Below are positions 6,542-64,000 of a DNA stretch of 64,000 nt, piece after piece (the first letter of the stretch is position 1; each line of letters starts with the position of its first letter). Below the pieces are notes generated by a model. It was not told the origin of the DNA and searched no databases. It worked only from the letters and a program-made list of their open reading frames with translations. The position numbers and the translations under genes are program-made. The stretch covers positions 361,397 through 425,396 of the forward strand of contig CAKVLR010000002.1 of NCBI GenBank assembly GCA_934757855.1, in the 5' to 3' direction. Source of the stretch: an uncultured Clostridia bacterium. Its GTDB lineage: Bacteria > Bacillota > Clostridia > Christensenellales > UBA1242.

Positions 6542-9500
6542 ATGAACAAAAGTTTACAAATGGTAAGTTGGTTTACTGGGGTGATTTTGGGAATAGTTGT
6601 TTTGCTTTTTGGCGGATTAAATCTCACACAAAATCGCAAGGCAGTGCTAGGCTATCCGCAGTACACGACTTTTTGGCTCGATAGCGCGGTAAAATATATC
6701 GAGTCGGAGCAATCTGCTGGCACTAAACAATATCCATATTTAATCAACACACCTGAGCAGTTGGCGTACATTGCAAAGGCTGTGAACGGCGGTACGGTTG
6801 ATAATGATGGAAATGTGCAGTATCTTGATTTTAGCGGGGTATTTTTCCAACTCAACGCCGATATTGATTTGAGCGGGAGTAACTGGGTGCCTATTGGAAA
6901 CGAGGCGCACCCATTTAAAGGTGTATTTTATGGCAATGGTAAAAAAATCTCAAATATGGTGATTGACTCAACTATGATGAACGCGACCGCTGGCGGAGTT
7001 GTTGTGAATGATTTTAGACAAAGCCTAGGATTGTTTGGTTATGTTGGGTACAACGGGAGTGCTGGAGAAACTGCTTCCACAATCAATCAGTTGGTTATTG
7101 AAAATGCATACATAAACGCTTGCGAATACGCGCAATATGCGGGTACAGTTGCGGGGGTATTTGAGGGCGCAAGTTTAAATAATATCACTATCATTAGCCC
7201 TACGAGTGAAACTTCAAACGACACGACTAGCGCGGGCGCCGTGATTTATCACAATTTGACCGACGCAAGTGTAATGAGTGCGGACTTTATCGCGGGCGGT
7301 GTGGTAGGAAAGTTGGGTAACTCGACTAGCACAACCGTTGCAAACCTTAGCAATGCGAACCACGATAACGAAATTTTGACTTCTATAAAATCAACTATTT
7401 ACGACAACAACGGCTATTCAGTCGTTTTGGGTGGTTTAGTCGGTGAAAATAATGGTACTCTCAAAGAAAGTCGCCGTACTGGTGGCGAGATAAACGCGTT
7501 TATCGGTACAATCGGTGGTTTGGTCGGTGTAAATAGTGCTAGCGGGAAAATGCTAGACTGCTACAACTACGGAAACATTTTGATTGACCCACTTTTGCCA
7601 AACGGTGTGAGCGTAGATAGTGGCTTAAACAAGGCAGAAGAAACGGTCATCGGTGGTATGGCTGGTAAAAACTTTGGTAGCATTTCTATCGAGAATTTTA
7701 GTGCAATTTACGGTACTGTCGAAGGGCAAAATGTTGCGCAAGTATTCCAAACTTGCCGAGGACTAATCGGTGGTATCGCGGGAACAAGTAAAGGAACGAT
7801 TGAAAATATCACAAATTTTGCATTTGTAAAATGTACGGGCGACCAAGTGCAATATATGGGTGGTATTACCGCAATTAATGCGGGTACAATTCGTAAATGT
7901 GTAAATAAAGGCATCGTTGGTGCGGACGGAAATACTGAATTTTCAGCAAAGGCAGTCGGCGGTATCACTGGGCTAAATGATAGTGCATCAATAGGTGATG
8001 GCGCAGAGCAGTTGGGCGATGGTAAGATTTATGGTGTAGAAAACAAGGCTGACACTGGTATCAATATTAATGCGGAAAATGCGGGCGGTATCGCGGGTAT
8101 CAATGCAAGTACTGGAAATATTACCTCTTATGAGGCTGGCGTGGTGGCTGGTGTAGTGCGAAATTTAGGAAATGTGCAAGGCACATCTGCCGTTGGTGGT
8201 ATCGTTGGTAAAAATTACGGTACAGTGGAATATGTTTACAATACAACAAATATTAGTTGCGCAAGCAATGCGGACTCGGCTAGCGTGGGGGGCGTAGTTG
8301 GAATTATGAGCAAAGGCGCAATCAAAAATAGTTTCAATGTAGGACAAGTGCTTGATGGATATAATGTTGGTGGTTTTGTAGGCACAATGGAAAATAGAAC
8401 GGCAAGAATCGAAAATTGTATCAATTACGGAAGCGTAACAGGTAGCAGAGGATATGTTGGCGGTTTTGCTGGATATATCGAAGCGGGCGCGCTTAGCAAG
8501 GTAATCGCTATTTGTGATGTGACTGAAAACGGTGACTCGCCTTTGGGTATCGGTGGTGTAATCGGTGCGGTAAAATTAAGCAATGGTGCGCCTGATACAG
8601 GAGTTACGCTAGAAAACTATTTCTATTCGGAAAGCATTGCAAACTACGAAGAAGATGAATTTGGCGTAACTGATAACGGAATGATAGCAATCGGTAATAC
8701 TGACATCAACAAATGGGCAAAAATGGACAGTTACAAGATGACTTTGCCATATGTAGAAAGCAAAATGACTGGTAGTGACAGATACCGTAGCGGTTTGTAT
8801 AAGGCTGGTTCTACGGGTGCTGAAATTGAAAACACTGACTGGTACTTTAACACAGCAAATGAAACGGCAAATACATATTATTATCCTATTTTGCGTGCGT
8901 TTAGGGCTGGGGAAACAAATTCACTCAATGTCTATGGCGCAACGGCAGATGCGGTGAAACCTGAAAACGGACTCGAATACCCAAGCGAAACGATTTTTAG
9001 AGTAGAATTTAGAAACAATTATCCATACTGGAATGTAAACGCCAAAGATTACGAAGAACGCGTAATTTGTGAAGATAGATATGTAGTAAACGGACATTAT
9101 ACGGCTGAGCCAAACTCAGACCTTTACGATAAGCCAGCAGGCTTTTATATGCAATGGAAACAGACCGATATTGATATGACTACTGCTCCACAAAATTGGA
9201 GTTTTACAAATAAAGTTACTAGAAATATGCGCATATACATTGATTGGACCGAAAAAACTTATACAATTAAATATTACTTGCAACTAAATGGTGTAGGTGA
9301 ATTTGTAGAGATGACCGCGGAAGAAAGAGAGCAATTTGGACTGAGCGATTCTTCAACATATAGCCTTGACCCTAACGCAAAATCAAGTCTAAATGCGATT
9401 AATATACCTGAGCCAAAATTGTTTGGTTATTCTTTTGATGGCTGGTGGATAAGCAAGACCGCAAGCGGAATAGGTGCTACTCTTGATGAGACGGACAAAG

Positions 9501-11167
9501 TGACCGAATTTTCACGCAACGAAGTTTATGCAGAAGATATTATATATGTATATGGTAAAAAGACTGCTGAAACATACACTGTTTACCTTTACCCAGGCGT
9601 AAACAACTCAAATATTGCTATGAAATTTGTTGATGCACAAGAGGGTACGCCAAAAGTTGTGACCCTTACATATGGTGAGGCTTTTGATTTGAGCGACATT
9701 CAAGCGCAACTCGATTATGACCCAGCAGACATAACATTTAAAGGTTGGTTTAGTAACGAGGGGACGGGCGGTACACAATACACAAATACAAATTCAGTTA
9801 GTATTGGTGTGTTTAAACTAACTGGCACGGGCGCAATTCGTTGGTACGCGCAATGGACTGATTCAATGCAAAAAATCTTGTTTGTAAGTATTGATGAAAA
9901 CGGAACTGAGCAAAATTTAGGCTCAACTTCGGTGCCTTTTGGAAATATATTCACTTACGAACAATTTGTAAGCCAAAACCTCAAATATTATGTGATAGAT
10001 GAGCGCGGTGGTTATGAAATTGACAGGTGCTTTGCAGATGCAAGTTTGCTTACCTTGTTTGATTTTAATAATAACTCAATTACTGATAGAACGACAATTT
10101 ACATTACTTGGAAAAAGAAATTTTTTAGCCTTAGGCTTAACGCCGATGGTGGCGCGTTTAGTGATGATTCGACCGTTTATGTGATTAATAATATCGAATA
10201 CAAGAGTGACTTTTTGGGCGAAGTGCTAAACAATCTTGCCGATACGCAAATGCCAGCGCGCATAGGTTATAAGGTAAAGAGAGTGAATGATATTGCAATT
10301 TGGAACGAACAGCCAAACGGGCAAGGCGCGGTGATTTCTTACGCGAACAACAACTACATTATGCCTGCATATGACCTAAATATCTACATTTCTTGGGAAG
10401 TGGAAAAATACACTGTGCAGATTGTAGCAAATGGCGGTTTGTTTACGACCGAAAATGGCAGTACGCCTTCAATTAATATTGCGCTCGAATACAATACTTC
10501 ATTGAAACAAGCGCTTGACCGCTACTTTGTGGCTAATGCATTGCCTACAAACGAGGGGTACGGTTTTAGGTATTGGAGTTTGCAAAACGCAGGTATTGAT
10601 GACACGCCAGCACCAGCCTTGACCGATAGCGACAAAGTGCCATATCTTGGTACAACCGTTTATGCAACTTGGGGCAGACAATATATCGTTAAATTTAAAA
10701 AGATATTCTACGATGATGAAACATCTTGGCTAGAAATCAAAGTATTTGAAGGGGATTGTGTTAGCGAACCAGACACTTCTTCCACAGACTTTATGGTAGC
10801 GGGTATGGACTTTGTAGAATGGAAACAATATATGGGTACAATCACAAATGAAAATGGCGAAAAAGAACAAGTTTATCAAGCATATGATTGGCTCGAGCCT
10901 GTCACTAGCGACTTAATTTTAGTAGGTACTTGGACACCAAACGGTGGCAAAACGGACCCTATCGACACAAGCAATATCTTGATTATCGCAATTTCAATAA
11001 TCGCTGGTATTGTGGTGATTATGTTTGTGGTTATTTTGGCGCGTAGCCGTAAAAAAGGACTAGAAGTTTCGAATAAACGCCTACAAACCAAAAATAGCAA
11101 GGAAAAATTAGAAAAAATACGCGAAATTGAAAAACGCCGTAAAAATGACAACCCATTCGATTTCTAA
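6542..11167 (+). CDS. giant surface protein (1541 aa): N-terminal signal anchor, GLUG-type glycine-rich beta-helix repeats, Listeria-Bacteroides repeats, C-terminal TM plus basic tail
   Basis: Repeated GG(I/L/V)(A/V)G..N motifs. Later GYSFDGWW, FKGWFS and GYGFRYWS repeats. C-terminus IIAISIIAGIVVIMFVVILARSRKK. No LPXTG motif. Confidence 0.85.
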   Translation: MNKSLQMVSWFTGVILGIVVLLFGGLNLTQNRKAVLGYPQYTTFWLDSAVKYIESEQSAGTKQYPYLINTPEQLAYIAKAVNGGTVDNDGNVQYLDFSGVFFQLNADIDLSGSNWVPIGNEAHPFKGVFYGNGKKISNMVIDSTMMNATAGGVVVNDFRQSLGLFGYVGYNGSAGETASTINQLVIENAYINACEYAQYAGTVAGVFEGASLNNITIISPTSETSNDTTSAGAVIYHNLTDASVMSADFIAGGVVGKLGNSTSTTVANLSNANHDNEILTSIKSTIYDNNGYSVVLGGLVGENNGTLKESRRTGGEINAFIGTIGGLVGVNSASGKMLDCYNYGNILIDPLLPNGVSVDSGLNKAEETVIGGMAGKNFGSISIENFSAIYGTVEGQNVAQVFQTCRGLIGGIAGTSKGTIENITNFAFVKCTGDQVQYMGGITAINAGTIRKCVNKGIVGADGNTEFSAKAVGGITGLNDSASIGDGAEQLGDGKIYGVENKADTGININAENAGGIAGINASTGNITSYEAGVVAGVVRNLGNVQGTSAVGGIVGKNYGTVEYVYNTTNISCASNADSASVGGVVGIMSKGAIKNSFNVGQVLDGYNVGGFVGTMENRTARIENCINYGSVTGSRGYVGGFAGYIEAGALSKVIAICDVTENGDSPLGIGGVIGAVKLSNGAPDTGVTLENYFYSESIANYEEDEFGVTDNGMIAIGNTDINKWAKMDSYKMTLPYVESKMTGSDRYRSGLYKAGSTGAEIENTDWYFNTANETANTYYYPILRAFRAGETNSLNVYGATADAVKPENGLEYPSETIFRVEFRNNYPYWNVNAKDYEERVICEDRYVVNGHYTAEPNSDLYDKPAGFYMQWKQTDIDMTTAPQNWSFTNKVTRNMRIYIDWTEKTYTIKYYLQLNGVGEFVEMTAEEREQFGLSDSSTYSLDPNAKSSLNAINIPEPKLFGYSFDGWWISKTASGIGATLDETDKVTEFSRNEVYAEDIIYVYGKKTAETYTVYLYPGVNNSNIAMKFVDAQEGTPKVVTLTYGEAFDLSDIQAQLDYDPADITFKGWFSNEGTGGTQYTNTNSVSIGVFKLTGTGAIRWYAQWTDSMQKILFVSIDENGTEQNLGSTSVPFGNIFTYEQFVSQNLKYYVIDERGGYEIDRCFADASLLTLFDFNNNSITDRTTIYITWKKKFFSLRLNADGGAFSDDSTVYVINNIEYKSDFLGEVLNNLADTQMPARIGYKVKRVNDIAIWNEQPNGQGAVISYANNNYIMPAYDLNIYISWEVEKYTVQIVANGGLFTTENGSTPSINIALEYNTSLKQALDRYFVANALPTNEGYGFRYWSLQNAGIDDTPAPALTDSDKVPYLGTTVYATWGRQYIVKFKKIFYDDETSWLEIKVFEGDCVSEPDTSSTDFMVAGMDFVEWKQYMGTITNENGEKEQVYQAYDWLEPVTSDLILVGTWTPNGGKTDPIDTSNILIIAISIIAGIVVIMFVVILARSRKKGLEVSNKRLQTKNSKEKLEKIREIEKRRKNDNPFDF

Positions 11168-40078: not shown

Positions 40079-42829
40079 ATGTCTAAAAAGATTGATGACA
40101 CCACCACCGTGCAGGTAAAGCCTATTATCAAAAAACGCGGAGGCTGTGGCTCATTTGCGATGGGATTTTTGTTTGCTTTTGTGTTTTTGATTGTATTTGT
40201 GGGCGGTACAATGCTATATTGCTACTACAATGTTACACTTACGCAAATTGAAAACATTCTAGGGGTAAAACTACCTGTTGAGGGCGAAATTCGTGACAAA
40301 GCGTTGAAAGATTTAATTGCATTAGGTATCGAATACAAAGATAGTTATACCGAAGCAACACTCGAAACTTTGGAAAATGATTTTGGGGTAAAATTGCCTG
40401 AAACTATACCAGGTACGGAGATAAAACTTGCTTGCGTTTACTCGGCAGAGGTAAACTTTTTAGGCAAAAAGCAAGCGGTGAAATCTTACCGAATACAAGA
40501 CATTGCAAATAACTTAGGTGATTTTGTAGATGTGATTTTGCCTGTACTTTACGACAATACAACCGTTGATGAAGTGCTAAAAAGTTTCAATATCACCATT
40601 CTTAATGACCTAGGATATCCAGCACTAAAAGATAAATATTATATGACTAATACAAGCACTGCAAAAAAATCTCTTGCCGAACTCACTATTAGCGAAGCGC
40701 TAGAAATTTTACCAAAGCATTTTAGTGAAGATAATTTAACTATTCAAGAAATTATCAATGCTGGTGGTTTGAGTATTATGCCTTATCCAGAAACTGGACA
40801 AAAAGATGTGTATGCAGGACTTAGAAACTTGCTCGTAACCAAAATTACGACCGACCAAATTTTGGAAAATGCAGACGGTGCATTGTTAAATGATTTACTC
40901 GATTTAACTGATTTTGATTTTGCACAAACGGAAGAATTTAACAATACCAAATTAAACAAAATGACTGATTATATAAAAACTGTGCCTTTGCACCAGTTTA
41001 TGACCGTACCTGAAACAGTTGATGAAAATAGCACCGCAAGCGACCATATTTTGTTTGCCTTGCGCAATGTAAATTACAACGACCTAAACGGCACTGAGCC
41101 TATCAAAACGGTTACTACAAAAATGAACGAAGCATATGCAGGACTTGTACTTAGCAAGATTATCGACTTTACCGACACGCCAAACCTTGACTTTTTGGCA
41201 AACACAAAATTGACCGATTTGATTGATGACCCAACAACTACTATTGATAACTTACTCGGCAGTGTCTATATCGGCAACTTTGTGACTTTGGGCAAAGTGG
41301 TAGAGGGCAACACGGATTTCTTTACAAATTCGATTTTCACACACATAAACGCCGACACAAATTTGAGCGAATTGCGCGATAGTATCGCAAATTTAAAAAT
41401 TAACCAAATTTTGACAACTGCGCAACTAAATAGCAGTACCTTGACCGATGCGCAAAAAGAAATGACTTTGCAACAACTTCTAGATTCAAACACAACCGCA
41501 ACGCTAGGCGAATTAATTTCTAGCGGACAAAGTGCCGATTTTGTAAACACATTAGGCGGGTTTATCAAAGCCCTACAAAATAGCACTAGCGCAACCTTCG
41601 TTGATGACCTCAAAACCGCAAAAATTTACGATTTAATCGGTGATGAAAATTCACCAAACGCACTCGCAAAACTCGCTGATATGGACTTGAATACTATCGC
41701 AAAAAGCGATGATATGATTGCGGTACTTGCAGAGAATTTTGGCACACTAGGTGAATTGTTAAAAACGCAAGATGATGATGGGTTTTTAGGAATAATCGGT
41801 AATGTAGCGTTTGCTGACTTGCTAGGTAGCGACCCAAGCGGGGCCATTATGGCGGAATTGAAAAAGAGTACAAAGACCCTTGCAAATGTACTAGGAATTA
41901 ATACATTTAGTAGCAAATTGATTGAATGTGTGATGACTATTCAAGTAAAAGACTTGTTTGGTAGCGACCCTGAAACCGCGTTTAAACAAGCACTCTCAAA
42001 AGAGGGTAACACAATCGGCTCAATCTTTGACTTTACCGCAACTACTGGAATGATGAAATATATCGCAAATGTTGAGTTTGCTGACCTATTAGGCGCAAAC
42101 CCAGCAGATGCAATTCTCAATGCGATTATCGGTAGCGAGGGAAGTTATACCACTTTGGGTGATTTCCTTGACAACCAAGAAACTACTGGCGTAATGAGTA
42201 TGATTTCTAGCGTAACAATGCGCGACTTATTAGGCAAAAATCCTAGCGTTACCGCTGGTAATGCGATTATGAATGCAATCGGTGGTAGCGGTAAGACTTT
42301 GGGCGATTTAATGGGAATTACTCCTACCGAGGGTATCGCAAATGTTGTGGCTGGTATGAGTCTTAGCGACCTATTCGGTGGTACTGCCAACCCAACCAAA
42401 GCGTTTAACGATTTGAAAGATAGCATATTACTTAAAGATGTGTTTACAAATATCGAAGAATTGCCACAAAATAATGTTTTACGCTTGATTTATGATGCTG
42501 ACAATAATGTAAAAGTAAGCGACATTTCTAGCAAAGTTGATGACATAAAAATTGCCGATATTTTGGGAATTAGCGAAACAAACCCAGCAACAGGCGTGTT
42601 TAGTTTGATAGGAAACTTAACCACTGAATATAACGGCAAAGCTCCAGTTACAATCGGCACTATAAATGATATGGAAATTAAGAGTGGTTTGACTATTGGT
42701 GACTTAGAAACTGCTGGAATTATCACCCTTACCGATGCGCAAAAAACAACATTAGGAACGGACATTAATTTATCTATTCAAGACTTTATTAATAAATATA
42801 TCGAGCAAAAATCACAAGCGACCCCATAA
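40079..42829 (+). CDS. large N-terminally anchored repeat protein (916 aa)
   Basis: TM FAMGFLFAFVFLIVFVGGTMLY. The C-terminal half has at least 5 tandem ~45-aa units built on (F/L)xDL(L/F)G..(D/N)P....A......G.T(L/I)G. Confidence 0.65.
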   Translation: MSKKIDDTTTVQVKPIIKKRGGCGSFAMGFLFAFVFLIVFVGGTMLYCYYNVTLTQIENILGVKLPVEGEIRDKALKDLIALGIEYKDSYTEATLETLENDFGVKLPETIPGTEIKLACVYSAEVNFLGKKQAVKSYRIQDIANNLGDFVDVILPVLYDNTTVDEVLKSFNITILNDLGYPALKDKYYMTNTSTAKKSLAELTISEALEILPKHFSEDNLTIQEIINAGGLSIMPYPETGQKDVYAGLRNLLVTKITTDQILENADGALLNDLLDLTDFDFAQTEEFNNTKLNKMTDYIKTVPLHQFMTVPETVDENSTASDHILFALRNVNYNDLNGTEPIKTVTTKMNEAYAGLVLSKIIDFTDTPNLDFLANTKLTDLIDDPTTTIDNLLGSVYIGNFVTLGKVVEGNTDFFTNSIFTHINADTNLSELRDSIANLKINQILTTAQLNSSTLTDAQKEMTLQQLLDSNTTATLGELISSGQSADFVNTLGGFIKALQNSTSATFVDDLKTAKIYDLIGDENSPNALAKLADMDLNTIAKSDDMIAVLAENFGTLGELLKTQDDDGFLGIIGNVAFADLLGSDPSGAIMAELKKSTKTLANVLGINTFSSKLIECVMTIQVKDLFGSDPETAFKQALSKEGNTIGSIFDFTATTGMMKYIANVEFADLLGANPADAILNAIIGSEGSYTTLGDFLDNQETTGVMSMISSVTMRDLLGKNPSVTAGNAIMNAIGGSGKTLGDLMGITPTEGIANVVAGMSLSDLFGGTANPTKAFNDLKDSILLKDVFTNIEELPQNNVLRLIYDADNNVKVSDISSKVDDIKIADILGISETNPATGVFSLIGNLTTEYNGKAPVTIGTINDMEIKSGLTIGDLETAGIITLTDAQKTTLGTDINLSIQDFINKYIEQKSQATP

Positions 42830-50784: not shown

Positions 50785-50970
50785 CGATATTGACCTAGCG
50801 GTCAATGATATTACTCACTATCGTTCGTAGTGATATTATTTACTAGCGTAAATAATGATATGATATTTGCCTTCACTGCAAACAAAGTTTGCAATATCAC
50901 TCGCTAAGCGAATATCATTGCGGAGCAATATCACTCACGCAGTGAATATCACTGAGCCGTAGGCTCAATT
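50785..50970. repeat. array of eight different short hairpins separated by GATAT (x5), then ATATC (x4), linker words
   Basis: GATAT at 50786, 50807, 50832, 50857 and 50862. ATATC at 50894, 50912, 50928 and 50946. Hairpins at 50791-50804, 50815-50833, 50838-50853, 50877-50893, 50901-50911, 50917-50929, 50931-50945 and 50953-50967. Confidence 0.8.
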
Positions 50971-50974
50971 TCAT

Positions 50975-51019
50975 TGTAAACAAAAGGAAAAGCCTCATAG
51001 GCTTTCCTTTTTTGTTTAC
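50975..51019. terminator. long hairpin with flanking A/T tracts (bidirectional terminator type)
   Basis: GTAAACAAAAGGAAAAGCC-TCAT-AGGCTTTCCTTTTTTGTTTAC. Confidence 0.7.
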
Positions 51020-52475: not shown

Positions 52476-55400
52476 ATGTTTAAAATTGTTTCAAAATTGA
52501 GTAAGGTTGTTGCAGTGATTGGTGCTGTTTTTCTTACTCTTTTATTTTTAAATTTTACTTTAAATTTCCATACAAAAAGTTTTGCGAGTAGTGAATTCGA
52601 AATTAACACTGCACAAGATTTGTATGATTTGGCAAATTCTGTAAACAACGGCAACAATTTTTACTTAACGGAAGTAAATTTAATGCAAGATATAGACCTA
52701 AATTTTGCGGAATGGCAGGCAATCGGTATTACAAAAGCAAAATGTTTTGCGGGTTCGTTTAATGGTAACGGGCATAAAATTTCAGGGTTATTGATTAATA
52801 ACAGTGGAAATGCAGGTTTGTTCGGAGCGCTGTGTGGAAAAGTGGAAAACTTAGTACTCGAAACAAAAATTGTATTGCGTGATTTTGGCGAAACTGCTAA
52901 AATCGGTGGTATTGCGGGGAATTTGATAAGCAAACTTATAAATGGCACAAATATCTATGGCAGTATTGTAAATTGTGCTGTATATTCAGAGGTTGCGGTT
53001 GAAGCAAAAAATTCTAAAACCACACAAGTTGGTGGGTTGGTTGGCACATATTCGAGCAACACTCGTCTAGCAGATTGCGCGGTTTATGTGCAAAATGAGT
53101 ACGATTTTATGCAAAGCAGTATGAGTTTTGGCTTACTGGCTGGAAAAAGTGGAATTTCTGCTACCGATTGCGTGTCGTACGGAAATGAAAATTTTATCAC
53201 CATTGAAAATGAAAATATAAATTCCAGCAAACTGGATTTTAATGAAAATTGGGCATTTTGCGAGAGTTGCGAGCAAATGTATCTAAAAATTGATACCTTG
53301 CACTTGCATCAAAACGATACAAAAATTATTACCCCAGAGTTGTCAAAAACTACTTACGAATATACTCAAAAGCCTTTGGAATTATCGCTAAAGCCTATCA
53401 CAAAACTCAACGAAAATGATGATATTTCGTACAAAATTGAGATAATTTCACAAAATTTAGGCGAAAATATAGCAAAAATTAGTCTTTTGGGTGCTGACAA
53501 AGATAAATACATACTATCTACCGACACAGTTAAATTTACTGTGATTGCCAAAAAAGTATATATAGTTATAAAAGCAAATTCCAGTGTGTACGGCGAACCG
53601 CTAAACGATATTGAATACACGCAAAGCGTTGATGAAAATTTGCAAATTGAATTTGGTTTGTTTCAACAAAATGAGCAAGTTGATGCATTTGATGCGGGCG
53701 AATATGATATAAAAGTTACCACTTATGATGAAAATTATAAACTCGTAATTACTGGGGCAAAATACACAATTTTACCGCGTGAAATTGCGCCCAAAACAAG
53801 TGATTTTACTTGCAATTACTCTCAACCATTTGATTTTGCTAGTATAGAACTAGAAAGTGTGCTAAATTGTGATAAAAGTGCAGTATATTGCATAAATAAT
53901 GGCACTATACCGCAAAATAAAGGCACATACCCGCTAAAAATTGCAATTAGTGGAGATAGAAGTAATAACTATTTATTGATAAACAACGAGATAAATTTAA
54001 CGATTTTACCTAAAAATATTGAGGTAATCTGGCAAGAAAGTACTTTTACCTTTAACAATGAATTTCAATACCCGTTGGCGAAAATAAACGAAAACGAAAT
54101 AACGGAAAATATAGAGTTTACCTACTCGCAATATGGCAAATTTGCTGGTGAAAATAGAGTGGTTGCAAAGAGCGAAAATGAAAATTACAATATCACAAAT
54201 TACGAAAAAACCTACACCATTTTGCCTTTACCTGTCGAGGTAATTTGGGTAAATAACACTCATATTTTTGATAATCAGCCGTTTTATCCACAATTTGAAA
54301 TAAAATTAGATTTTAAATATCAAATCAATATTATTACAAGTTCAAGCCAAAGTGAGGTGGGTGAATATACGGCGACACTCAATGTGCTGGACGCAAATAT
54401 TTTGTTAAATAATAATACTACTCAATTTACAATCACGCCATATGCGATTAATATAGTTTGGACAAAAACCGAATTTACTTTTGACAATTTACCGCACGCG
54501 CCAGAGTTTATTTTAGAACCTTTGCCTTTTGAATATGACTTAAAATTAACCAACTCCTCACCGCAAATTGATGCGGGCGAACATACTGGCATAGTTGTCT
54601 TAAATGACAAAAATTTCACAATTTTTAATGCAAAAACGCAATTTTTTATCAAAAAATACGATTTTTCGTTGATTTGGAGCGAAAATTTATTCATTTTTGA
54701 TAGTACTATGCAATGTCCAACCGTGCAAAATGATTTGCCATTTGAGTATAATTTATCTATTAATTACACACCCGCGCAAAGTGAAGTAGGTAAGCACGCG
54801 ATAGAGGCTAGCACCAAAGATACTAACATTAATTTACTAAATAAAATAGCCGAATACGAAATTTTACCATATGTTTGCGAGTTGTGTTGGAGTGATACTA
54901 CCAGCACATTCAATAACACTTGTTTCAATCCAACTTGCAGTTTTGAGTTGCCATTTGTATATGATTTAAAGATAAACTTATCCGCACCTCAAACCAACGC
55001 AGGGCAATACACTTGCACCGCAAACACAATGGACAAAAATATCAAACTCGCAAACGCCAGCACTTTGTTTACTATTAAACCCAAAACTGTTAGGCTTGCG
55101 TGGACAAATACTTATGTTTGTTATACGGGGTATGTTCAAACCCCGACTTGCGCCTACGATATTTTAGATTATGATTTTCCTATTGAGATTACGGGCGCGC
55201 AAGAAAATGTCGGCGTATATACGGTGACCGCTACCACTACCGACACAAATATAAAAATTGATAATTGTATGACTAAATTTGAAATATACAATCTAGTTTG
55301 CGAGGTGCTTTGGAGCGAAAAAGAGTTTGTTTATAATGGCAGTAAATTTTGTCCAACGCCAACTCTAAATTTGGCTGACAATATAAATAAAGCAAAAATT

Positions 55401-56135
55401 GCGCTCAAAACAAGAGGGGCATCTAGCAGTATAGGTAGCCACACGGCGGTAGCATATACGGACAATAAAAATGTCAAATTATACAACATTGCGTGCAGTT
55501 ATAAAATACTAGAAAATTCTGCTTATTTTGTTTCGCAAGAAGATGAATTAAATGTGCGTGTTAGTGGCGAATTTGTGGGCGATGTAAATATTGATTTAAC
55601 TACGATTGATGAGAAAAATATTGTACCGCGCAACTGGGAAATTTTGTGCGCAATAAAACTTGAAAATCGTTTAGAAAACAGCGAAAATTTGCAAAAATTA
55701 CTAAAAAATACACAAAAAACACTCATTTTTGATGATTTTTCAGCAAATTTGGAAGATTTGAGTGAGGAAAACGAAAATGAAACGGAATACAATTTCAACA
55801 TAAATTACTCCATAATTGTAGGTGTAAATAATCTAAAAGTGTACTTAATTACAGATAATGATTTCAACGAAATTGACTACAATATTAGCAACAAAAATTT
55901 ATCTTTTACCACAAACGATTTAGGAGTTATTTGCATAGTAAATGAAAAGCCTGATACATTTGTATCGGACTTGATTAGGTCCATTATGGGCGCTATTATT
56001 GTAGTGTGCGCGGGTACTTTTATCACAATCAAACACTTGCAAGAAAAACAACAAATTGTGTTTAAAAAAGTAGAACCGCAAACCGCCAAAAATGAAAACG
56101 AAAAAACCAAAGCCAAAAAGCAATCGAAAAAATAA
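52476..56135 (+). CDS. giant surface protein (1219 aa): signal anchor, GLUG-type region, ~10 tandem Ig-like (MBG-type) repeats, C-terminal TM plus basic tail
   Basis: N-terminal region GLFGAL..GGIAGN..GGLVG. Repeats of ~85-90 aa end in YTILP, FTITPY, FFIKKY, YEILPY and FTIKPK. C-terminus IMGAIIVVCAGTFITIKH followed by a K-rich tail. Confidence 0.8.
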   Translation: MFKIVSKLSKVVAVIGAVFLTLLFLNFTLNFHTKSFASSEFEINTAQDLYDLANSVNNGNNFYLTEVNLMQDIDLNFAEWQAIGITKAKCFAGSFNGNGHKISGLLINNSGNAGLFGALCGKVENLVLETKIVLRDFGETAKIGGIAGNLISKLINGTNIYGSIVNCAVYSEVAVEAKNSKTTQVGGLVGTYSSNTRLADCAVYVQNEYDFMQSSMSFGLLAGKSGISATDCVSYGNENFITIENENINSSKLDFNENWAFCESCEQMYLKIDTLHLHQNDTKIITPELSKTTYEYTQKPLELSLKPITKLNENDDISYKIEIISQNLGENIAKISLLGADKDKYILSTDTVKFTVIAKKVYIVIKANSSVYGEPLNDIEYTQSVDENLQIEFGLFQQNEQVDAFDAGEYDIKVTTYDENYKLVITGAKYTILPREIAPKTSDFTCNYSQPFDFASIELESVLNCDKSAVYCINNGTIPQNKGTYPLKIAISGDRSNNYLLINNEINLTILPKNIEVIWQESTFTFNNEFQYPLAKINENEITENIEFTYSQYGKFAGENRVVAKSENENYNITNYEKTYTILPLPVEVIWVNNTHIFDNQPFYPQFEIKLDFKYQINIITSSSQSEVGEYTATLNVLDANILLNNNTTQFTITPYAINIVWTKTEFTFDNLPHAPEFILEPLPFEYDLKLTNSSPQIDAGEHTGIVVLNDKNFTIFNAKTQFFIKKYDFSLIWSENLFIFDSTMQCPTVQNDLPFEYNLSINYTPAQSEVGKHAIEASTKDTNINLLNKIAEYEILPYVCELCWSDTTSTFNNTCFNPTCSFELPFVYDLKINLSAPQTNAGQYTCTANTMDKNIKLANASTLFTIKPKTVRLAWTNTYVCYTGYVQTPTCAYDILDYDFPIEITGAQENVGVYTVTATTTDTNIKIDNCMTKFEIYNLVCEVLWSEKEFVYNGSKFCPTPTLNLADNINKAKIALKTRGASSSIGSHTAVAYTDNKNVKLYNIACSYKILENSAYFVSQEDELNVRVSGEFVGDVNIDLTTIDEKNIVPRNWEILCAIKLENRLENSENLQKLLKNTQKTLIFDDFSANLEDLSEENENETEYNFNINYSIIVGVNNLKVYLITDNDFNEIDYNISNKNLSFTTNDLGVICIVNEKPDTFVSDLIRSIMGAIIVVCAGTFITIKHLQEKQQIVFKKVEPQTAKNENEKTKAKKQSKK

Positions 56136-56582: not shown

Positions 56583-57233
56583 ATGTATGAATTTGTTAGC
56601 AAAAAAGAAGTGCAATCTGCAAGAAATGAAATTGAGGGTGTAATCCATAATGTGCAAGATTATTTGAGAAAAAATAATATTTTAACTTTTCAATATAATC
56701 TTGTTGGTAGTGCTAGTAAACATAGGCATCTTGTAACAAGAATTGTGGGAGGAAACCAAGGTTTTGATATGGATTATAATATTATTATTCAGTCAATCGA
56801 TGATAAATATAATAATCCTAAAAGAACTAAAATAATTCTTATGCAAACTTTTAATGAATTTCTGCCAAAAGATTTCAAGCCTTGTGAAGATTCTTCATCG
56901 GTGTTCACTATTAAAAAAGTGAATAAACAAAGCAAAAAAATTGTTTACAGTTTTGATTTTGCTATTGTCCATTATTACTATCCTGAGACAGAAGATGAGT
57001 ACTATCAAGTTGAAAGACAAGAATATATTTCTTTTAATAAAAAAGCAAATTCGTATTCTTGGGAATTAAGAAAAATTGCTTCTGACCATAGATATATGGA
57101 GCAATATATCAAACACAATAGTTTATGGAATAGATTAAGAGAAGATTATCTTAAACACAAAAATAGTGAGCCAACAAAGAAATCAAGAATAGTTTATTAT
57201 GAAACTCTCAAACGCATTTATAACAAATATTAA
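56583..57233 (+). CDS. Pol-beta-superfamily nucleotidyltransferase-like protein (216 aa)
   Basis: VGSASK...(18 aa)...FDMDYNI (GS...DxD) and a third acidic strand YSFDFAIV; GGAGG SD; AT-rich like the cas genes. Confidence 0.55.
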   Translation: MYEFVSKKEVQSARNEIEGVIHNVQDYLRKNNILTFQYNLVGSASKHRHLVTRIVGGNQGFDMDYNIIIQSIDDKYNNPKRTKIILMQTFNEFLPKDFKPCEDSSSVFTIKKVNKQSKKIVYSFDFAIVHYYYPETEDEYYQVERQEYISFNKKANSYSWELRKIASDHRYMEQYIKHNSLWNRLREDYLKHKNSEPTKKSRIVYYETLKRIYNKY

Positions 57234-57342: not shown

Positions 57343-57356
57343 GCTGGTGGAGGAAA

Positions 57357-57452
57357 CAAAAAAGGTCCGCAATTAGCGCAGACCTAACATATTTCTATGT
57401 GATGAGTTTAAATTTATTTTAACTCTATCATGTAATTCAGGTGTTTCCACCT
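57357..57452 (-). ncRNA. tracrRNA: tracrRNA candidate (antisense to the cas9 5' leader)
   Basis: The minus strand reads GGUGGAAACACCUGAAUUACAUGAUAGAGUUAAAAUAAAUUUAAACUC...GGUCUGCGCUAAUUGCGGACCUUUUUU. It shares AGUUAAAAUAA with the S. pyogenes tracrRNA. It has its own promoter and an intrinsic terminator. Confidence 0.65.
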
Positions 57453-57491: not shown

Positions 57492-60400
57492 ATGGCAAAA
57501 GAAAAAGAGAAATTAAAGCATACTAATTATAGCATTGGACTGGATATTGGTACAAATTCAGTTGGTTGGGCTGTTGTAGATGAAAATATGAATTTGGTTA
57601 AGCGTTGTAAAAAGCACTTATGGGGTAGTCGCTTGTTTGATGAGCGCGAAACAGCAAAAAATAGGCGTATATTTCGTACTACGCGCAGAAGGTTATTGCG
57701 TAGGCGTATTCGTATCGCAATACTAAATAAATTGCTACAAGATTTTGTTGGCGACCAAAACTTTTTTGTTAGAATGGAAGAAAGTTTTTTGCAGAAAAAC
57801 GACCGCACTTTGCAAAATAAATACACACTTTTTGATGAAGAAAGTTCTTGCGACATAAAATCAAGTGATGGCAAAATTTTATATACCATAACAAAAGATG
57901 ATGATTTTTATAAATTATTTCCTACAATTTATCACTTGCGCAAAAGCATTATTGAGCATCAAGATTGGATATTTGCTCCAAAACTGGTTTATTTAGCGAT
58001 TCACCATATCTTAAAGAGTCGTGGTAACTTTATCAATGAAAGTTTGGACTCAAAAAATAGCGATGATAAAAATACCGATGAGGACCAAGAACAAGAGATA
58101 GATATAAATAAATTATTTGTTAAAATTTTGCAAGATGCTTGTGATATATATGATGTGGAATTAGAAAATATTGATGAATTTAGCGAATATAAATGGATTA
58201 GAAATCTAAGTGCACAATCGCAGGTATTTTTTGAAGTTTTGCAAAATAATGATTTAAGCAAAGAAGCAAAAATTGCGCAAATAAAACAAAAATTTAATTG
58301 TGGAAAAGATGATACAGAAATTGAATCGCTCCTAAAATTGTTACTTGGCGATTTGGCGGATATCAACAAGATATTTAAGAGTGATACCAAAGAGAAATTT
58401 AAAGTGAAATTTTCAGAGGACAATATTGATGAAAAAATATTAGCAAGTGGTGAATATTCACAATTTTTAGAAAATGCTAAAAACTTGTATTCCTTGGTAG
58501 AGTATCAGCGAATTATGCAAGGCAAAAATTATCTTTCTGATGTAATGATAGAGCGATACAATCGTTACAAACAACAATTAAAAGACTTAAAAACTGTATT
58601 TTTAGCGATTTATCCAAAACAAAATGGCAAAATGCACCCAGAATATCGCAAGTTTTTCCGTGATTTAAAAACTGTTGATGGTTATGCTTGATATACATAT
58701 TCCGTTAATTCTTGTGATGAGAAAAAATTTAAAAGTACTATTATAGGGGCAATAAAAAATAATGAGCAAAAAATAATTAGTGCGGGCATTTGTGCGGAAG
58801 ACAACCAAAGTATTGCGGAAAAAGCGAAAAAAATCTTAATTTGTCTTGGAGAGTATTCGGCAAAAGATGGAAAAGAACAACTTTATGTTGGTATAGACTT
58901 TACAGACAAAGATTTTAGGACAGAGAGTGATAGGCAAAAGCAACAAGAGTTAGGCTTTTTACAGCGCCCTCGCGTGGCTGGTAATGGTATTTTCCCAAAA
59001 CAAGCACACCAAAAAGAATTAGATATAATTCTTAAAAATCAATCAGTATATTGGGGCAATTTTTTAAACAAAAAAACTGATTTCTCAAACAACACAATTC
59101 AAGAAGATATCAAAAAATTATTCAATTTTAAAATTGACTACTATGTTGGACCATTGGGTATCAGCAAAAATGGAACAAACAATTTTGGCTGGGTGGTACG
59201 CAAAGAAGGTTTTAGTGAAATAACTCCTTTTAATTATTACGATGCTGTTGATTTTGAGAAAACTCGTAAAAATTTTATTGAGAGAATGTCTGGCAACTGC
59301 TCATATATTTTGAATAAAAAAGCGTTACCTAAAAACTCAATGTATTACTGCTATTTTAATGTACTAAATGAATTATGCAATATTAGTATTTTGATAAAAG
59401 ACAAATTAATGAAATTGCACGAGATTTCACTAAATGGAAAAAATTGCTTTGATATTATTATTGATAAATTGCTCGAGAAAAATACCTTTAAACAAAAAGA
59501 TTTATTGCATATGCTGACAGAAGAATATGATGATGTGTCTATAAGAGGTTTTTCAAATGGCGAAAAGTTAAATTCTAATTTAAAATCAATTCGCGATATG
59601 GCTAGAATATTTGAGGATAGAAAATTAAATCATTGTGAAATTATGGAATTTCTAGGCAGTGAAAAAGCAAGTATGTATGAAGATGTAATTCGTGATGTTA
59701 CTATTTTCGGCGAAAGCAAAAAAGCACTAAAAGAATCTTTGAGTAAATATCATTTGAAGGAAGATGAAAAAGAGAGAGAGAAACAAATAAACGCCATTTG
59801 TGAGTTAAATTATTCTGGTTGGGGTAATTTGAGCAAAAAATTAATTTTTGGCATTGAATCTGAGAGTAGCGGGAACAAAATTCTAAAATTAATGGAAAGC
59901 GAACATAGAAACTTTATGTCTATTTATATGGACAAGCGATACGGCTTTGATGAGCAAGTAAAAAAACTAAACGAAGTAGATAAACCTAATGTCCTTGAGC
60001 AAATTAACTCGCTTGTTTGCTCTCCTAGCGTAAAAAGAGGGGTTAACCAAGCGTATAAAATTGTGGAGGAACTAGTACAAGTTATGGGACACGCTCCGCA
60101 AAATGTATTTTTAGAGTTCGCGCGTGGTGGAGATTCTAAGAAAAAAGGTAGTGTTATTCCAAACAGACAAAAACAAATTGACAAAAAATATAAAGATGCA
60201 AAAGCATTAAAAGATGGCTTATATGAAAAATATATAAATGCTGACGGTAAATTAAATGAAAATATAAGCCTTTTATCACAAAACGATAAAGAAAATGATA
60301 AATTAAAGAATAAATTTGATAATGAAAAAGTAGTACTATATTTCTTGCAAATGGGTAGATGTATGTACAGTAATGAGATATTAGACTTAAATCATATTAG

Positions 60401-62255
60401 CGAATATGAAGTGGACCACATCGTGCCTCAGTCGATTATAGATGATAATAGTTTTGATAATAAAGTTTTGGTTAAGGTGAAAAGAAATCAACAAAAATCC
60501 AATGGAATTTTAGAGATAAAAGACTCAGAAGTAACGAAATTATGGAAAGAGTTGCGTAAAATGGGGTTGTTGACAGTTGAAAAATATGATAGATTGCTCA
60601 AATTGCAGAATGGCACTCTGCTTGATAATACTGCTGGTTTTGTTGCTAGACAATTAGTGGAAACTAGGCAAATTATAAAAAATACCGCAGAAATTTTAAA
60701 AGACTACTTCAAAGAATATAATGCTAAATCTGCTCAAATTAATGCAGAAAATCAAGCATTTGAAACTTCGGTTTATCCTGTAAAGGCTGAGATGAATAGT
60801 ATTTTTAGACAAAAATTTGGTTATCCAAAGGGCGAAGGTGGCAGGGCTATCAATGACTTTCACCACGCAAAAGATGCCTATATCACAACGGTTATGGGGA
60901 CTTATATGCTAAATCATTGGCATTTAGATGACCCTAAAATGTGGTTTGTAGCAAGGAGTAAAAAGAATGAAGATGACCCTAAATTTGAATGTTCATTTTA
61001 TCAAAACTATATCGAAGATATAAAAGCGGAACAAGACACGCTAAACCCGCAAAATACAAATAAAAGCGGTGTGATTGTTGGTTCGATGAAGAAATATCAA
61101 GACAAAAATTGGTGTGGTAGCAAATGCGAAACTCATACAAACATTACTATTAAAGATGTGCTTAATAATTTTGACCGTAACTACTACTCCGCAGATTGTT
61201 ATTATTCAAGAAAAATTGATTCAAAACCAACAGGTGCTTTTTACGACCAAACCATTTACAAAAGCGACAAGAATAAAGAAAAGTTTGGGAAAACGCGCAA
61301 TCATGAGGGTATTGCGAGTATTTCTTTGGGAAAAATCAAAAAACCAATTATGCCATATGGTGAGAAGGTAGTGCAAAAAATCAATAGAATAGACTTAGAT
61401 GTGAGTAAATATGGTGGCTATTCTTCAACTAAATATGCATATTTTATGCTAATTGAGTACAAAGATGAAAAGGGTAAAGTAATTCAGGAAATAATTGGTT
61501 GTCCATACTACATATTAAAACAATCATCGAATGATATTGAATTAGTGAATAACATAAAAAATAATTTAATAATAAAAAACCAACAAGAATATACTAATTT
61601 TAAAATTTTAAATAAACGATTACCTAAAAAAAGTGTTTTGCAAACTAATTTGTATTCAAAAGTTTCGTTAGATCGGTCTGAACAATTCAAGATTATAAAT
61701 CGCTTCAGTATCCCACGAAATAATAAAGAATTATATCATTTTATTTATTTAATTTTTAAGTATACTAAGAGCAAAGATGAATATGAGGGTAATAGAAAGA
61801 TTACAATAAATTATATTGATTATAATGCATGGCTAAAAGAAAAACAGTATCCGTTAGGTGTGAATATAGATTTAGAGAATTATATAAATGAGAATTTTGC
61901 TAATTTTTATAAGATTTTTCTTGAATATGTTAAGTCAAAACATAGACATAAGACTTCTATAATTAATATTGAAAAAGCATATGCTAAGATTTGTAATGAA
62001 ACTGATTTAGATGCGATATATCACGATACCAATACAAAAACCATACTTGAAAAGAAATTATTATTTATTGTAGGGTTATTAAATATTTCAAAGGGAGAGG
62101 CAGATTTTACATTGTTTGATTTAGCAAAAAATTGTGGACTTATTAGGATTACACAGGAAGTGGACTGGTATAACACTTACATTATTCACAATTCCATAAC
62201 TGGTATTTATTGCACAAAAGAAAAAATAATAAAAAATACACAAGAAAATAGGTAA
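57492..62255 (+). CDS. cas9: Cas9 (type II-A), 1587-codon frame interrupted by one in-frame TGA at 58689-58691 (possible pseudogene or read-through)
   Basis: RuvC-I YSIGLDIGTNSVGWAVV; Arg-rich bridge helix RRIFRTTRRRLLRRRIRI; RuvC-II VFLEFARG; HNH YEVDHIVPQS..N; RuvC-III NDFHHAKDAY. ORF-track pieces 57492-58691 and 58974-62255 are in the same frame, and 58692-58973 is open. Confidence 0.93.
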
Positions 62256-62258
62256 AAT

Positions 62259-63131
62259 ATGAGTTTTAGGACTGTTTTAATTACTCAAAAATCAAAGTTA
62301 TCATACAAAGATAACTTTTTGGTTATTCAAGGTAAAACAACAAATATGGTGCATTTAAGCGAAATTCATACTATTATTGTTGAATCTACAATGGTGCAAA
62401 TATCGGCATATCTTTTAGCTCAATTATCTGCAAACAAAATCAAATTGATTGTTTGCGATGAACGCCACAACCCTACAGCAGAAATGGTACCATATTATGC
62501 AAATTACAATACATCAAAAAGATTTTTAAATCAGGTCAAATGGAATGAGGAAAGTAAAAAAGCCCTTTGGACAAAAATAGTATCAAATAAAATACTAAAT
62601 CAGGCAAGAATTTTAAAAAATTTTGGAATAGAAAGACACAAAATGTTGCTAGGATATTTGAGTGAGGTAGAATTAAACGATGAAACAAATAGAGAGGGAC
62701 ATTCTGCAAAAGTCTATTTTAATAGTTTGTTTGGTATGGATTTTTCGCGGGACAAGGTTTGTGATATAAATATGGCATTAGATTACGGATATACTATTAT
62801 TTTATCTGCGTTTAATCGTACTATATCTAGTTTGGGTTATGCAAACCAATTAGGAATTAAACATAAAAATGAGTACAATTTCTTTAACCTAGGTTGCGAC
62901 CTTATGGAGCCGTTTCGAGTGGTTATAGATGAATTTGTGTATGAAAATCGTGAGCGAATGTTTGATTCTTCATACAAACAAGATTTGGTGCAGTTGTTAA
63001 ATAAGAATATTAATTATTGTGGCAAAAATATGATTTTAACCAATGCAATAAATATATTTGTGCTAAACGCGTTGCGCGCAATTGATGAAAATAGAATAGC
63101 GGAGTATGAAGCATATGAGTACGGAGTATAG
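62259..63131 (+). CDS. cas1: Cas1 (type II)
   Basis: Strong similarity by eye to S. pyogenes Cas1: SKLSYK.N.L, NREGHSAKVYFNSLFG.DFSRD, LDYGYT, EPFR. Confidence 0.95.
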   Translation: MSFRTVLITQKSKLSYKDNFLVIQGKTTNMVHLSEIHTIIVESTMVQISAYLLAQLSANKIKLIVCDERHNPTAEMVPYYANYNTSKRFLNQVKWNEESKKALWTKIVSNKILNQARILKNFGIERHKMLLGYLSEVELNDETNREGHSAKVYFNSLFGMDFSRDKVCDINMALDYGYTIILSAFNRTISSLGYANQLGIKHKNEYNFFNLGCDLMEPFRVVIDEFVYENRERMFDSSYKQDLVQLLNKNINYCGKNMILTNAINIFVLNALRAIDENRIAEYEAYEYGV

Positions 63132-63441
63132 ATTTATGAGATTAATTGTATTTTTCGATTTGCCTACATTTACAAAAAAAGATTTGCAAAATTACAATCA
63201 ATTTAGAAGATTTTTAATAAAAGAAGGTTTTGCAATGATGCAAGAATCTGTTTATACAAAAATTTTGCTAAACGGAACTATGGCGGGGCTTTTAAAAGAG
63301 AGAATAAAAAAGAATTCCCCTCGAAATGGGCTTATTCAACTGCTTTTAGTTACCGAAAAGCAGTTTGCAAACATTGAATTTGTATCGGGAGAGTCTAAAA
63401 GTATAATAGAAGATTCAGACAAAAGGTTTGTGGTGTATTGA
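63115..63441 (+). CDS. cas2: Cas2 (type II)
   Basis: MSTEYRFMRLIVFFDLPT...EGFAMMQESVYTKILLN...VTEKQFANI parallels S. pyogenes Cas2. The start is ambiguous (63106, 63115 or 63136). The TGA stop overlaps the csn2 ATG. Confidence 0.92.
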   Translation: MSTEYRFMRLIVFFDLPTFTKKDLQNYNQFRRFLIKEGFAMMQESVYTKILLNGTMAGLLKERIKKNSPRNGLIQLLLVTEKQFANIEFVSGESKSIIEDSDKRFVVY

Positions 63442-64000
63442 TGAAACTTGGCTTTTTTGAAATAGAAAATCCTATTGAATTTAGACAAGGTTTTGTAAGT
63501 ATATTAGAAATAGGGAACAAAACACTGCTAAGAAATGTTGTATTTGGACTTTATAAATTGTATAATGGCTTGCAAGCGGATATGTCTATCGTGATAGAAC
63601 AAAATAATACGGTTGAAGCGTTGAGTAAATTTGAGTTGGTAACTGATATTATAAATTTAGATTTATCGACTTCGCAAACAAAACTGAATAAGTACCTTTT
63701 AAATGAATTGGAAAATAATCAAGAGGAGTTTAGAGCAGTTTTTGATGAATTATTTGCTATAAAATCTAAAATTTTCAACTTTTTAGATGACATTCCTTTC
63801 GATTTGTGTTATAATGAGCCAGAAGTGCTAGATTTGATAAAAGATTTCAATTTCAAACTAGACTGCAAAAGTGAAGAGGGGCTATTAAAAGGTGTGCTAA
63901 ACTATATCAAAGCAGTAAAGTTATTGAAATTGGCGGAAATTATCATATTTGTGGACCTAAAAAAATATTTTACAGAGGCGGAATTAAAGCAAATTTATGA
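63441..64000 (+). CDS. csn2: Csn2 (type II-A marker), 3'-truncated by the window end
   Basis: Open frame from ATG 63441 to the window end (missing from the ORF track). Position after cas2 and the VTDIINLDLSTSQTKL.. segment resemble S. pyogenes Csn2. Confidence 0.75.
   Translation, partial: MKLGFFEIENPIEFRQGFVSILEIGNKTLLRNVVFGLYKLYNGLQADMSIVIEQNNTVEALSKFELVTDIINLDLSTSQTKLNKYLLNELENNQEEFRAVFDELFAIKSKIFNFLDDIPFDLCYNEPEVLDLIKDFNFKLDCKSEEGLLKGVLNYIKAVKLLKLAEIIIFVDLKKYFTEAELKQIY

Follow-up and report, generated by a model that had tools for sequence, protein, structure and literature searches.

Organisation of the CRISPR-Cas locus

The window, i.e., the whole 64-kb stretch of DNA analysed here, belongs to an uncultured gut Clostridia bacterium and carries a CRISPR-Cas locus towards its 3' end. 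On the plus strand, an interrupted cas9 frame (57492-62255) is followed by cas1 (62259-63131; 290 aa, intact, PF01867), cas2 (63136-63441; 101 aa, PF09827) and csn2 (63441-64000; PF09711). The cas2 gene ends in a TGA which overlaps the ATG of csn2 by 1 nt (TGATG), and csn2 runs past the end of the window; contig L001, which is identical to the window, shows its full length of 228 aa. Beyond the window, after csn2 and at the equivalent of approximately positions 64167-64731, lies the CRISPR array, which was read from L001 and L085, both of them identical contigs. It consists of nine identical 36-nt repeats (GTTTTAGTATCATGTAATTCTAATAGGAACAATAAC) and eight spacers. None of the spacers matched the 64-kb window at up to six mismatches, so that no self-targeting spacer which might account for selection for Cas9 loss was seen there, and exact protospacers for three spacers were absent from IMG/VR.

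A tracrRNA gene was found on the minus strand at 57355-57452, the 5' end of which is predicted. Its anti-repeat (GAATTACATGATAGAGTTAAAAT, approximately 57438-57416) partially matches the CRISPR repeat, and the gene ends in an intrinsic terminator with a stem at 57385-57363 followed by a T-run. A promoter/terminator scan also predicted a promoter-like TTGACT-17-TATTAT at 57487-57459, and the tracrRNA region is conserved in a sister allele (L090). The first-pass annotation, which was made from the window sequence, described cas1, cas2, csn2 and the tracrRNA as intact and pointed to an array downstream of csn2; all of these were recovered, with cas1 and cas2 complete in the window and csn2 complete in L001.

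The domains of cas9, the position of cas1, cas2 and csn2 3' of it, and an array accompanied by an anti-repeat tracrRNA together identify the locus as type II-A. It resembles those of S. pyogenes and S. thermophilus CRISPR3 in gene order (tracrRNA on the opposite strand, cas9, cas1, cas2, csn2, array), in its 36-nt repeats starting GTTTTAG and 30-nt spacers, and in the RuvC and HNH catalytic motifs. However, it differs from both in an insertion of approximately 70 aa in REC after the motif NYARYT, an expanded RuvC-III/PI region, and the stop which interrupts cas9. The approximately 1190 intact downstream codons, the catalytic residues, the tracrRNA and the identical-repeat array would also fit a gene that is still in use.

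The interrupted cas9 frame

The whole cas9 frame (57492-62255, plus strand) translates into 1587 sense codons with one internal stop, a TGA at 58689-58691 (codon 400; context GTT GAT GGT TAT GCT TGA TAT ACA). This agrees with the first-pass annotation, which had read the ORFs 57492-58691 and 58974-62255 as lying in one frame, with a stop-free gap of 282 nt between them and the TGA as the only lesion. The two ORFs encode 399 and 1093 aa, respectively. The assembled protein of 1587 aa is, as also noted there, far longer than is typical, exceeding the 1368 aa of SpCas9 by approximately 220 aa.

Codons 1-399 (57492-58688) encode RuvC-I (IGLDIGTNSVGW, including Asp18), the bridge helix and the first part of the REC lobe, with a Pfam match to Cas9_REC and a phmmer match to solved Cas9 structures at E=1e-55. 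Codons 401-1587 and the TAA stop (58692-62255) have Pfam matches to HNH_4, Cas9_RuvC and Cas9_PI, and encode the clade-specific REC insertion, the remainder of REC, RuvC-II, HNH (DHIVPQS), RuvC-III (NDFHHAKDAY) and a long PI domain. This part is free of further stops and frameshifts. Pfam, phmmer (E-values of 1e-46 to 1e-63 for the window cas9 against solved structures) and motifs in the translation place the full set of RuvC-I/II/III, HNH, REC and PI domains across the two ORFs.

Ancestry of the stop codon

The first-pass annotation placed the stop at a conserved glycine and derived it by a GGA to TGA change. The underlying alignment is real, as DGYA[TGA]Y does line up with DGYAGY of the SpCas9-like protein of solved structure 9vj8, although the column is variable among solved Cas9 proteins, being Gly in 9vj8 and His in 9jwk. 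Within the same Cas9 clade, however, the residue is Arg in six of six relatives, so that neither the glycine nor the GGA codon can be maintained and the stop descends from a codon for Arg (CGN). Five of these relatives (P0001, P0002, P0122, P0123 and P0124) carry the motif NYARYT and encode its Arg with CGC, AGG or AGA. The sixth is P0267, the 1582-aa product of L090, which was recovered through the 90%-identity protein cluster holding the window cas9. This protein is intact and 91% identical to that of the window; its gene shares 94.6% nucleotide identity with the window cas9 and has CGC at codon 400. Sequence comparison with these relatives thus demonstrates both the Arg ancestry of the stop codon and the existence of an intact sister allele.

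A TGA where a close relative keeps the sense codon CGC is the pattern of a nonsense pseudogene. The simplest path, and a likely one, would be a synonymous change from CGC to CGA followed by a C to T transition from CGA to TGA.

Lesions in related alleles

Broken cas9 genes were also found elsewhere in the clade, which is what the first-pass annotation had said would indicate a plain pseudogene. The sister haplotype L091/L092 has a 1-nt deletion in cas9, the frame of L087 is interrupted once, by a TAG at codon 188, L004 combines a frameshift with a TAG, and L003 carries frameshifts. As read from these alleles, the lesions of the other clade members differ and are independent.

A similar history has been described in Mycoplasma gallisepticum, in which point mutations that gave rise to stops or to a frameshift have inactivated cas9 on at least four occasions (PMC11893278). 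Its truncated MgCas9 forms V1-V4 (PMC11893278) share with the present locus the stops arising by point mutation, including in the REC lobe, a type II-A locus that is still recognisable with its array kept, recurrent and independent inactivation within one lineage, and the coexistence of intact and broken alleles. By contrast, the window stop is a TGA derived from an Arg codon, and its host is an uncultured gut Clostridia bacterium known from metagenome assemblies alone.

Age of the lesion

There was no sign of relaxed constraint in cas9 when it was compared with the intact L090 by dN/dS and a relative-rate test. The dN/dS ratio was 0.29 overall (0.26 for the part before the stop and 0.30 for the part after it), and cas1 and cas2 gave 0.03 and 0.025, respectively. 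Derived amino-acid changes were balanced between the two lineages: strict polarisation gave 12 vs 12, and loose polarisation 34 vs 32. Furthermore, 5.9% of single-nucleotide changes in cas9 would create a stop and no further stops were seen, which limits neutral evolution since the event to at most about 0.014 substitutions per site. By these estimates the lesion is recent. The tracrRNA, cas1, cas2, csn2 and array would be undecayed because the inactivation is young.

Interpretation of the stop codon

Taken together, the window cas9 is very probably a recent nonsense pseudogene, with Arg400 changed to a stop. Under the standard code translation would end after 399 residues, giving a product with RuvC-I, the bridge helix and part of REC, and without most of REC, RuvC-II/III, HNH and PI. 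No functional Cas9 would then be expected beyond a trace from ordinary near-cognate read-through of UGA, and we infer from the sequence a loss of Cas9 function. Its fixation could be due to drift, or to selection against the cost of Cas9 or against autoimmunity. Nonsense mutation is an ordinary and well-documented route by which bacteria lose Cas9. Of the three explanations that the first-pass annotation left side by side, recent inactivation is the one supported.

Were the TGA a sequencing or assembly error, the true codon would be a sense codon and cas9 would be intact; one base, T for C, would suffice if that codon were CGA. The same allele is present with no mismatches over 4764 nt in a MEGAHIT contig from ENA (L001, k141) and in a Logan contig (L002), so that at least two assemblers or pipelines call the same base, and an NCBI record holds the same two ORF products. 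This agreement makes an artefact of a single assembly unlikely, although all three may derive from one sample, and L001, L002 and the window, which are identical wherever they overlap, might share one read set. The site also lies outside any homopolymer, and consensus substitution errors are rare in Illumina assemblies, all of which leaves an error very unlikely. Pattern scans of JGI metagenomes across the TGA site, both specific for the window haplotype and tolerant of L090, gave no match, and no relative of the window cas9 was found among GTDB representative genomes. The host itself was placed by its MnmG, but no more finely than Clostridia, the best hit having 65% identity.

A second reading is that UGA is a sense codon in this host, for Gly, Trp or Sec. 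It draws on the Gly found at this column in SpCas9-like proteins and on the rarity of TGA as a terminator, which the first-pass annotation had taken as a hint of recoding. The scarcity is numerically correct (2 of 52 genes in the window), and, as had been noted, the two genes concerned, the marR-like one and cas2, each have a TGA stop that overlaps the next ATG. However, it is not unusual against low-GC Clostridia relatives, in which 45 of 422 stops (10.7%; 32 loci) are TGA, the difference not being significant (binomial P=0.074). Nor does the hint gain support from the coding sequences, since no other in-frame TGA occurs in the 17,046 codons of the 52 other window genes, in which the use of TGG (128 codons) and GGN (999 codons) is normal; the window thus lacks the numerous UGAs, in frame and at conserved Trp or Gly positions, that mark a reassigned code. 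TGA terminates cas2, and the same 1-nt overlap with csn2 recurs in L003, the one relative checked. In close relatives the codon-400 column is Arg, never Gly, Trp or Cys, and across homologues it is Arg, Gly or His rather than the Cys/Sec of a selenoprotein; the sequence after the codon has no SECIS-like fold (folding of 58680-58770 was not stronger than that of shuffled sequences, z=+0.77), and Rfam gave no recoding element near the TGA. The 64-kb window contains no tRNA with anticodon UCA, its full set of tRNAs being Leu(TAG), Gly(TCC), Leu(CAG) and Leu(CAA). The host also falls in Clostridia, a group outside the lineages known to have reassigned UGA and one for which the Codetta survey does not list such a reassignment (PMC8629427). 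The in-frame TGA at an SpCas9-like Gly column superficially recalls the UGA=Gly code of Absconditabacteria and Gracilibacteria (table 25), but having Arg instead of Gly at the column removes this suggestive tie. The two cases differ in that the clade has Arg at this column, a single TGA stands in approximately 17,000 codons, TGA terminates genes, the host is in Clostridia, and no tRNA-Gly(UCA) was seen in the window. Recoding is therefore extremely unlikely, and within the 64 kb examined it is effectively refuted.

Alternatively, near-cognate tRNA-Trp or a suppressor may read the UGA at a rate that is low and yet of use to the cell, such that a small dose of full-length Cas9 is tolerated or selected. 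UGA is the leakiest stop in Firmicutes, and low-level UGA read-through by tRNA-Trp has reportedly been observed in Bacillus subtilis (Lovett et al. 1991); by analogy, such read-through of the cas9 UGA could yield some full-length protein. The intact downstream codons, catalytic motifs, tracrRNA and array, and the lack of an excess of derived changes in the window lineage, would agree with this, although recency accounts equally well for the integrity of the gene. The cas9 stop, moreover, is in the UGAU context, which terminates efficiently, while UGAC and UGAA are leaky; there is no stimulatory structure 3' of it, and the residue inserted on read-through would most likely be Trp, at a position that is invariantly Arg in the clade. 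Nor is the stop itself conserved, since the intact sister allele encodes Arg, and the frameshifts and TAG in other clade members fit decay and not regulation. We consider useful read-through very improbable. Its stronger form, in which the UGA is tolerated and nonsense alleles are reversible 'dimmer' states of reduced full-length Cas9, with recurrent switching (the TGA of the window, the TAG of L087) in place of decay, is very improbable too; if it were true, one C<->T change would bring the Arg back.

It is likewise hardly credible that the locus encodes a natural split Cas9, in which the guide RNA would bring together the 399-aa N-terminal piece and a C-terminal piece made by re-initiation to give a working enzyme. 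Cas9 has been engineered in split form, and the approximately 95 codons that would be lost correspond largely to the clade-specific insertion, which is absent from SpCas9. However, in all relatives both the insertion and the sequence on either side of it are conserved, and the intact sister allele encodes an undivided protein. After the TGA, the GTG at 58974 is the first start codon in frame; it has no Shine-Dalgarno motif upstream and no in-frame ATG, GTG or TTG in the 94 codons 5' of it, and the split enzyme was rejected for this missing start signal.

Implications for annotation and Cas9 diversity

With the nonsense pseudogene as the preferred reading, the finding is of use mainly to annotation, and the two ORFs are best annotated as one cas9 pseudogene (Arg400 to stop), and neither as two genes nor as evidence of an alternative code. 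The several differently broken alleles in the clade add one more natural case of recurrent Cas9 loss, a phenomenon already documented. Among uncultured gut Clostridia, P0267 (1582 aa), P0122 and P0124 mark out a clade of type II-A Cas9 proteins of unusual length. Along with the repeat and tracrRNA recovered here, this clade could hold some modest interest for the mining of Cas9 proteins.

cas9 and its type II-A locus

The cas9 frame of the window spans 57492-62255 and contains 1587 sense codons, with TGA at 58689-58691 as the sole internal stop. The ORF listing and the translation bear out the first-pass annotation on this point: the ORFs at 57492-58691 (399 aa) and 58974-62255 (1093 aa) share one frame, no stop occurs in the 282 nt separating them, and the codons around the lesion read GTT GAT GGT TAT GCT TGA TAT ACA. 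Judged from its sequence the product is clearly a Cas9, with both halves matching solved Cas9 structures in phmmer (N-terminal, E=1e-55; C-terminal, 6e-63) and the catalytic motifs present in the translation (RuvC-I Asp, HNH DHIVPQS and RuvC-III NDFHHAKDAY).

The other components, previously described as intact, were all located, i.e., cas1 (62259-63131), cas2 (63136-63441), csn2 (from 63441, running past the window end) and, on the minus strand, a tracrRNA (about 57452-57355) with a promoter-like site, anti-repeat and intrinsic terminator. The array that was to be looked for downstream of csn2 is present in contigs that match the window at every base and extend past its end; it lies directly 3' of csn2, just outside the window, with eight spacers of 30-31 nt between nine identical 36-nt repeats. 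All parts of a type II-A system are present, and one stop interrupts the cas9 frame.

The exact 399-aa and 1093-aa products were found in an NCBI record (426-kb contig), in ENA assembly ERZ27286917 (135-kb MEGAHIT contig, L001/L085) and in a Logan assembly of ERR7738273 (L002). L001 and L002 agree with the window at every base over 12.5 kb and 7.8 kb, respectively. The TGA was thus called by more than one assembler, from samples that are possibly not independent.

The length of 1587 aa, which had been singled out as atypical, is real and is close to that of the intact sister allele (1582 aa); clade relatives reach 1430-1538 aa. As the representative search also returned other Cas9 proteins of 1500-1560 aa, this length is unusual but not unprecedented. 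The extra residues fall in expanded RuvC-III and PI regions and in a clade-specific REC-lobe insertion, about 70 aa long and immediately following the NYARYT motif (58734-58973, cas9 codons about 415-494). This insertion is kept in P0001, P0002, P0122, P0123 and P0267, whereas SpCas9-like structures and the more distant P0124 do not have it.

Ancestral residue at codon 400

The stop had been placed at a conserved glycine, one GGA to TGA substitution away. The window motif does align with DGYAGY in the SpCas9-like structure 9vj8, but the column is variable among solved Cas9 structures (His in 9jwk). All five clade relatives aligned with the window Cas9 (alignment A1; P0001 and P0002 from a word-indexed search, P0122, P0123 and P0124 from an exhaustive representative search) have Arg there, encoded by CGC, AGG or AGA, within an invariant Y-A-R-Y-T motif. 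Furthermore, the 90%-identity cluster containing both window ORFs includes P0267, the uninterrupted sister allele, whose gene (L090, Logan SRR19415686; 94.6% nucleotide and 91% amino acid identity to the window) is followed by cas1, cas2 and csn2 and has CGC (Arg) at the TGA position. Arg throughout the clade and CGC in L090 rule out GGA to TGA; the lesion is Arg400 to stop, for which the simplest path would be a synonymous CGC to CGA change followed by a C to T transition.

Recoding or loss of function

Recoding of UGA had been raised alongside inactivation, with the scarcity of TGA terminators as a hint. This scarcity stands (2 of 52 stops in the window), but it is the low-GC expectation, since Clostridia relatives (32 loci, GC below 0.37) use TGA at 45 of 422 stops (binomial P 0.074). 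When only TAA and TAG were treated as stops, no real window gene besides cas9 gained an internal TGA, and 53 greedy-selected ORFs (17,046 codons) contained 128 TGG, 999 GGN and no in-frame TGA. The marR-like gene and cas2 both end in TGA, which in cas2 overlaps the csn2 ATG by one base; the cas2/csn2 junction of the relative L003 likewise has TGA. The window encodes the tRNAs Leu(TAG), Gly(TCC), Leu(CAG) and Leu(CAA). Folding of the 90-nt stretch that includes and follows the TGA was not better than that of shuffled sequences (z=+0.77), and an Rfam search at the site gave no match. By its MnmG the organism falls among Clostridia MAGs from gut and rumen, all uncultured and several labelled Christensenella-like (best match 65% identity), and the UGA reassignments of the Codetta survey are limited to Mycoplasmatales/Entomoplasmatales, insect endosymbionts and Absconditabacteria/Gracilibacteria (PMC8629427). 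For the sequence available, both genome-wide reassignment and selenocysteine are therefore rejected. Low levels of UGA read-through are known in Firmicutes, and residual read-through by tRNA-Trp is possible; however, UGA-U is not a leaky stop context and Trp would stand in for an invariant Arg. Re-initiation is unlikely because the first in-frame start after the stop, GTG at 58974, has no Shine-Dalgarno motif.

The window cas9 is thus very probably an ordinary, recent nonsense pseudogene from a new lineage of long type II-A Cas9 proteins. Translation would end at codon 399, and the fragment, lacking REC2/3, RuvC-II/III, HNH and PI, would have no interference activity. Drift, relief from the cost of Cas9 and escape from self-targeting are candidate causes of the allele's persistence; the spacers gave no match to the window, and three spacers gave none in IMG/VR.

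Age of the lesion

Relative to L090, cas9 as a whole has a dN/dS of 0.29 (Nei-Gojobori, dS=0.13), with 0.26 before the stop (codons 1-399) and 0.30 after it (codons 401-1587), and the same method gives 0.03 for cas1, 0.025 for cas2 and 0.17 for csn2. Derived amino-acid changes, polarised by three outgroups, number 12 in the window lineage and 12 in the intact L090 lineage (34 and 32, respectively, under looser polarisation). Stop-creating changes make up 5.9% of all single-nucleotide changes in cas9 and the 1187 codons downstream of the TGA contain no further stop, so neutral evolution since the lesion is capped at about 0.014 substitutions per site (P(0)=0.05), roughly a fifth of the lineage branch. 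Even dN/dS across the stop, balanced changes and intact downstream codons support the very recent inactivation that was among the original options. The nonsense mutation is young, and this accounts for the flawless look of the rest of the locus.

Other lesions in the clade

Further lesions in sister genomes had been named at first pass as a sign of a plain pseudogene, and other clade members do carry lesions, at sites of their own. L091/L092, which represents a third haplotype of this gene (18 SNPs over about 1.2 kb; L091:106-1285, L092:106-1177), has lost 1 nt from an A-run at window-equivalent 58283, giving the frameshifted 280-aa P0266, a tentative lesion given low coverage and two assemblies possibly from the same Hadza data. 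L087 (4371-8987) has a lone in-frame TAG at codon 188 of an otherwise open 1538-codon frame, with cas1, cas2 and csn2 called at normal lengths; L004 (399-5104) has a frameshift and a TAG; and L003 (1-4416), an old JGI assembly with possible sequencing errors, has two cas9 frameshifts and a split cas1. L090, L086 (P0122, 1475 aa) and L088/L089 (P0124, 1430 aa, NCBI GCA_949287445.1) are intact. Counting the window's own TGA, five of the eight haplotypes seen in this clade are disrupted, each at a different position, and three are intact.

These scattered, independent lesions suggest recurrent cas9 loss, with the caveat that L003 and L091/L092 may hold sequencing errors. CRISPR immunity has known costs, with which such loss is consistent. 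The pattern resembles that documented for cas9 of Mycoplasma gallisepticum: following a host shift, MgCas9 was truncated at least four times by a point mutation or frameshift (PMC11893278).

Other observations

In a different Cas9 clade, outside the window, dozens of N-terminal products of about 576 aa (e.g., P0069, P0070) occur on long contigs, P0069 on 29 of them (longest 62 kb); these may be another truncated or split cas9 that is widespread. Going upstream, the window and L090 cease to be similar about 224 nt before the cas9 start (window about 57270; L090 about 1-70), just past the tracrRNA terminator, so the CRISPR-Cas island has a different left flank in each of the two haplotypes. Two plus-strand ORFs directly precede the tracrRNA and cas9, 52476-56135 (1219 aa) and 56583-57233 (216 aa), and match no Pfam family at E<=0.001, as is also the case for the plus-strand ORFs at 6542-11167 (1541 aa) and 40079-42829 (916 aa). 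A Gut-1 RNA (RF01706; 54.7 bits, gathering score 50) lies on the minus strand at 50907-50976, flanked by two tRNA-Leu genes.
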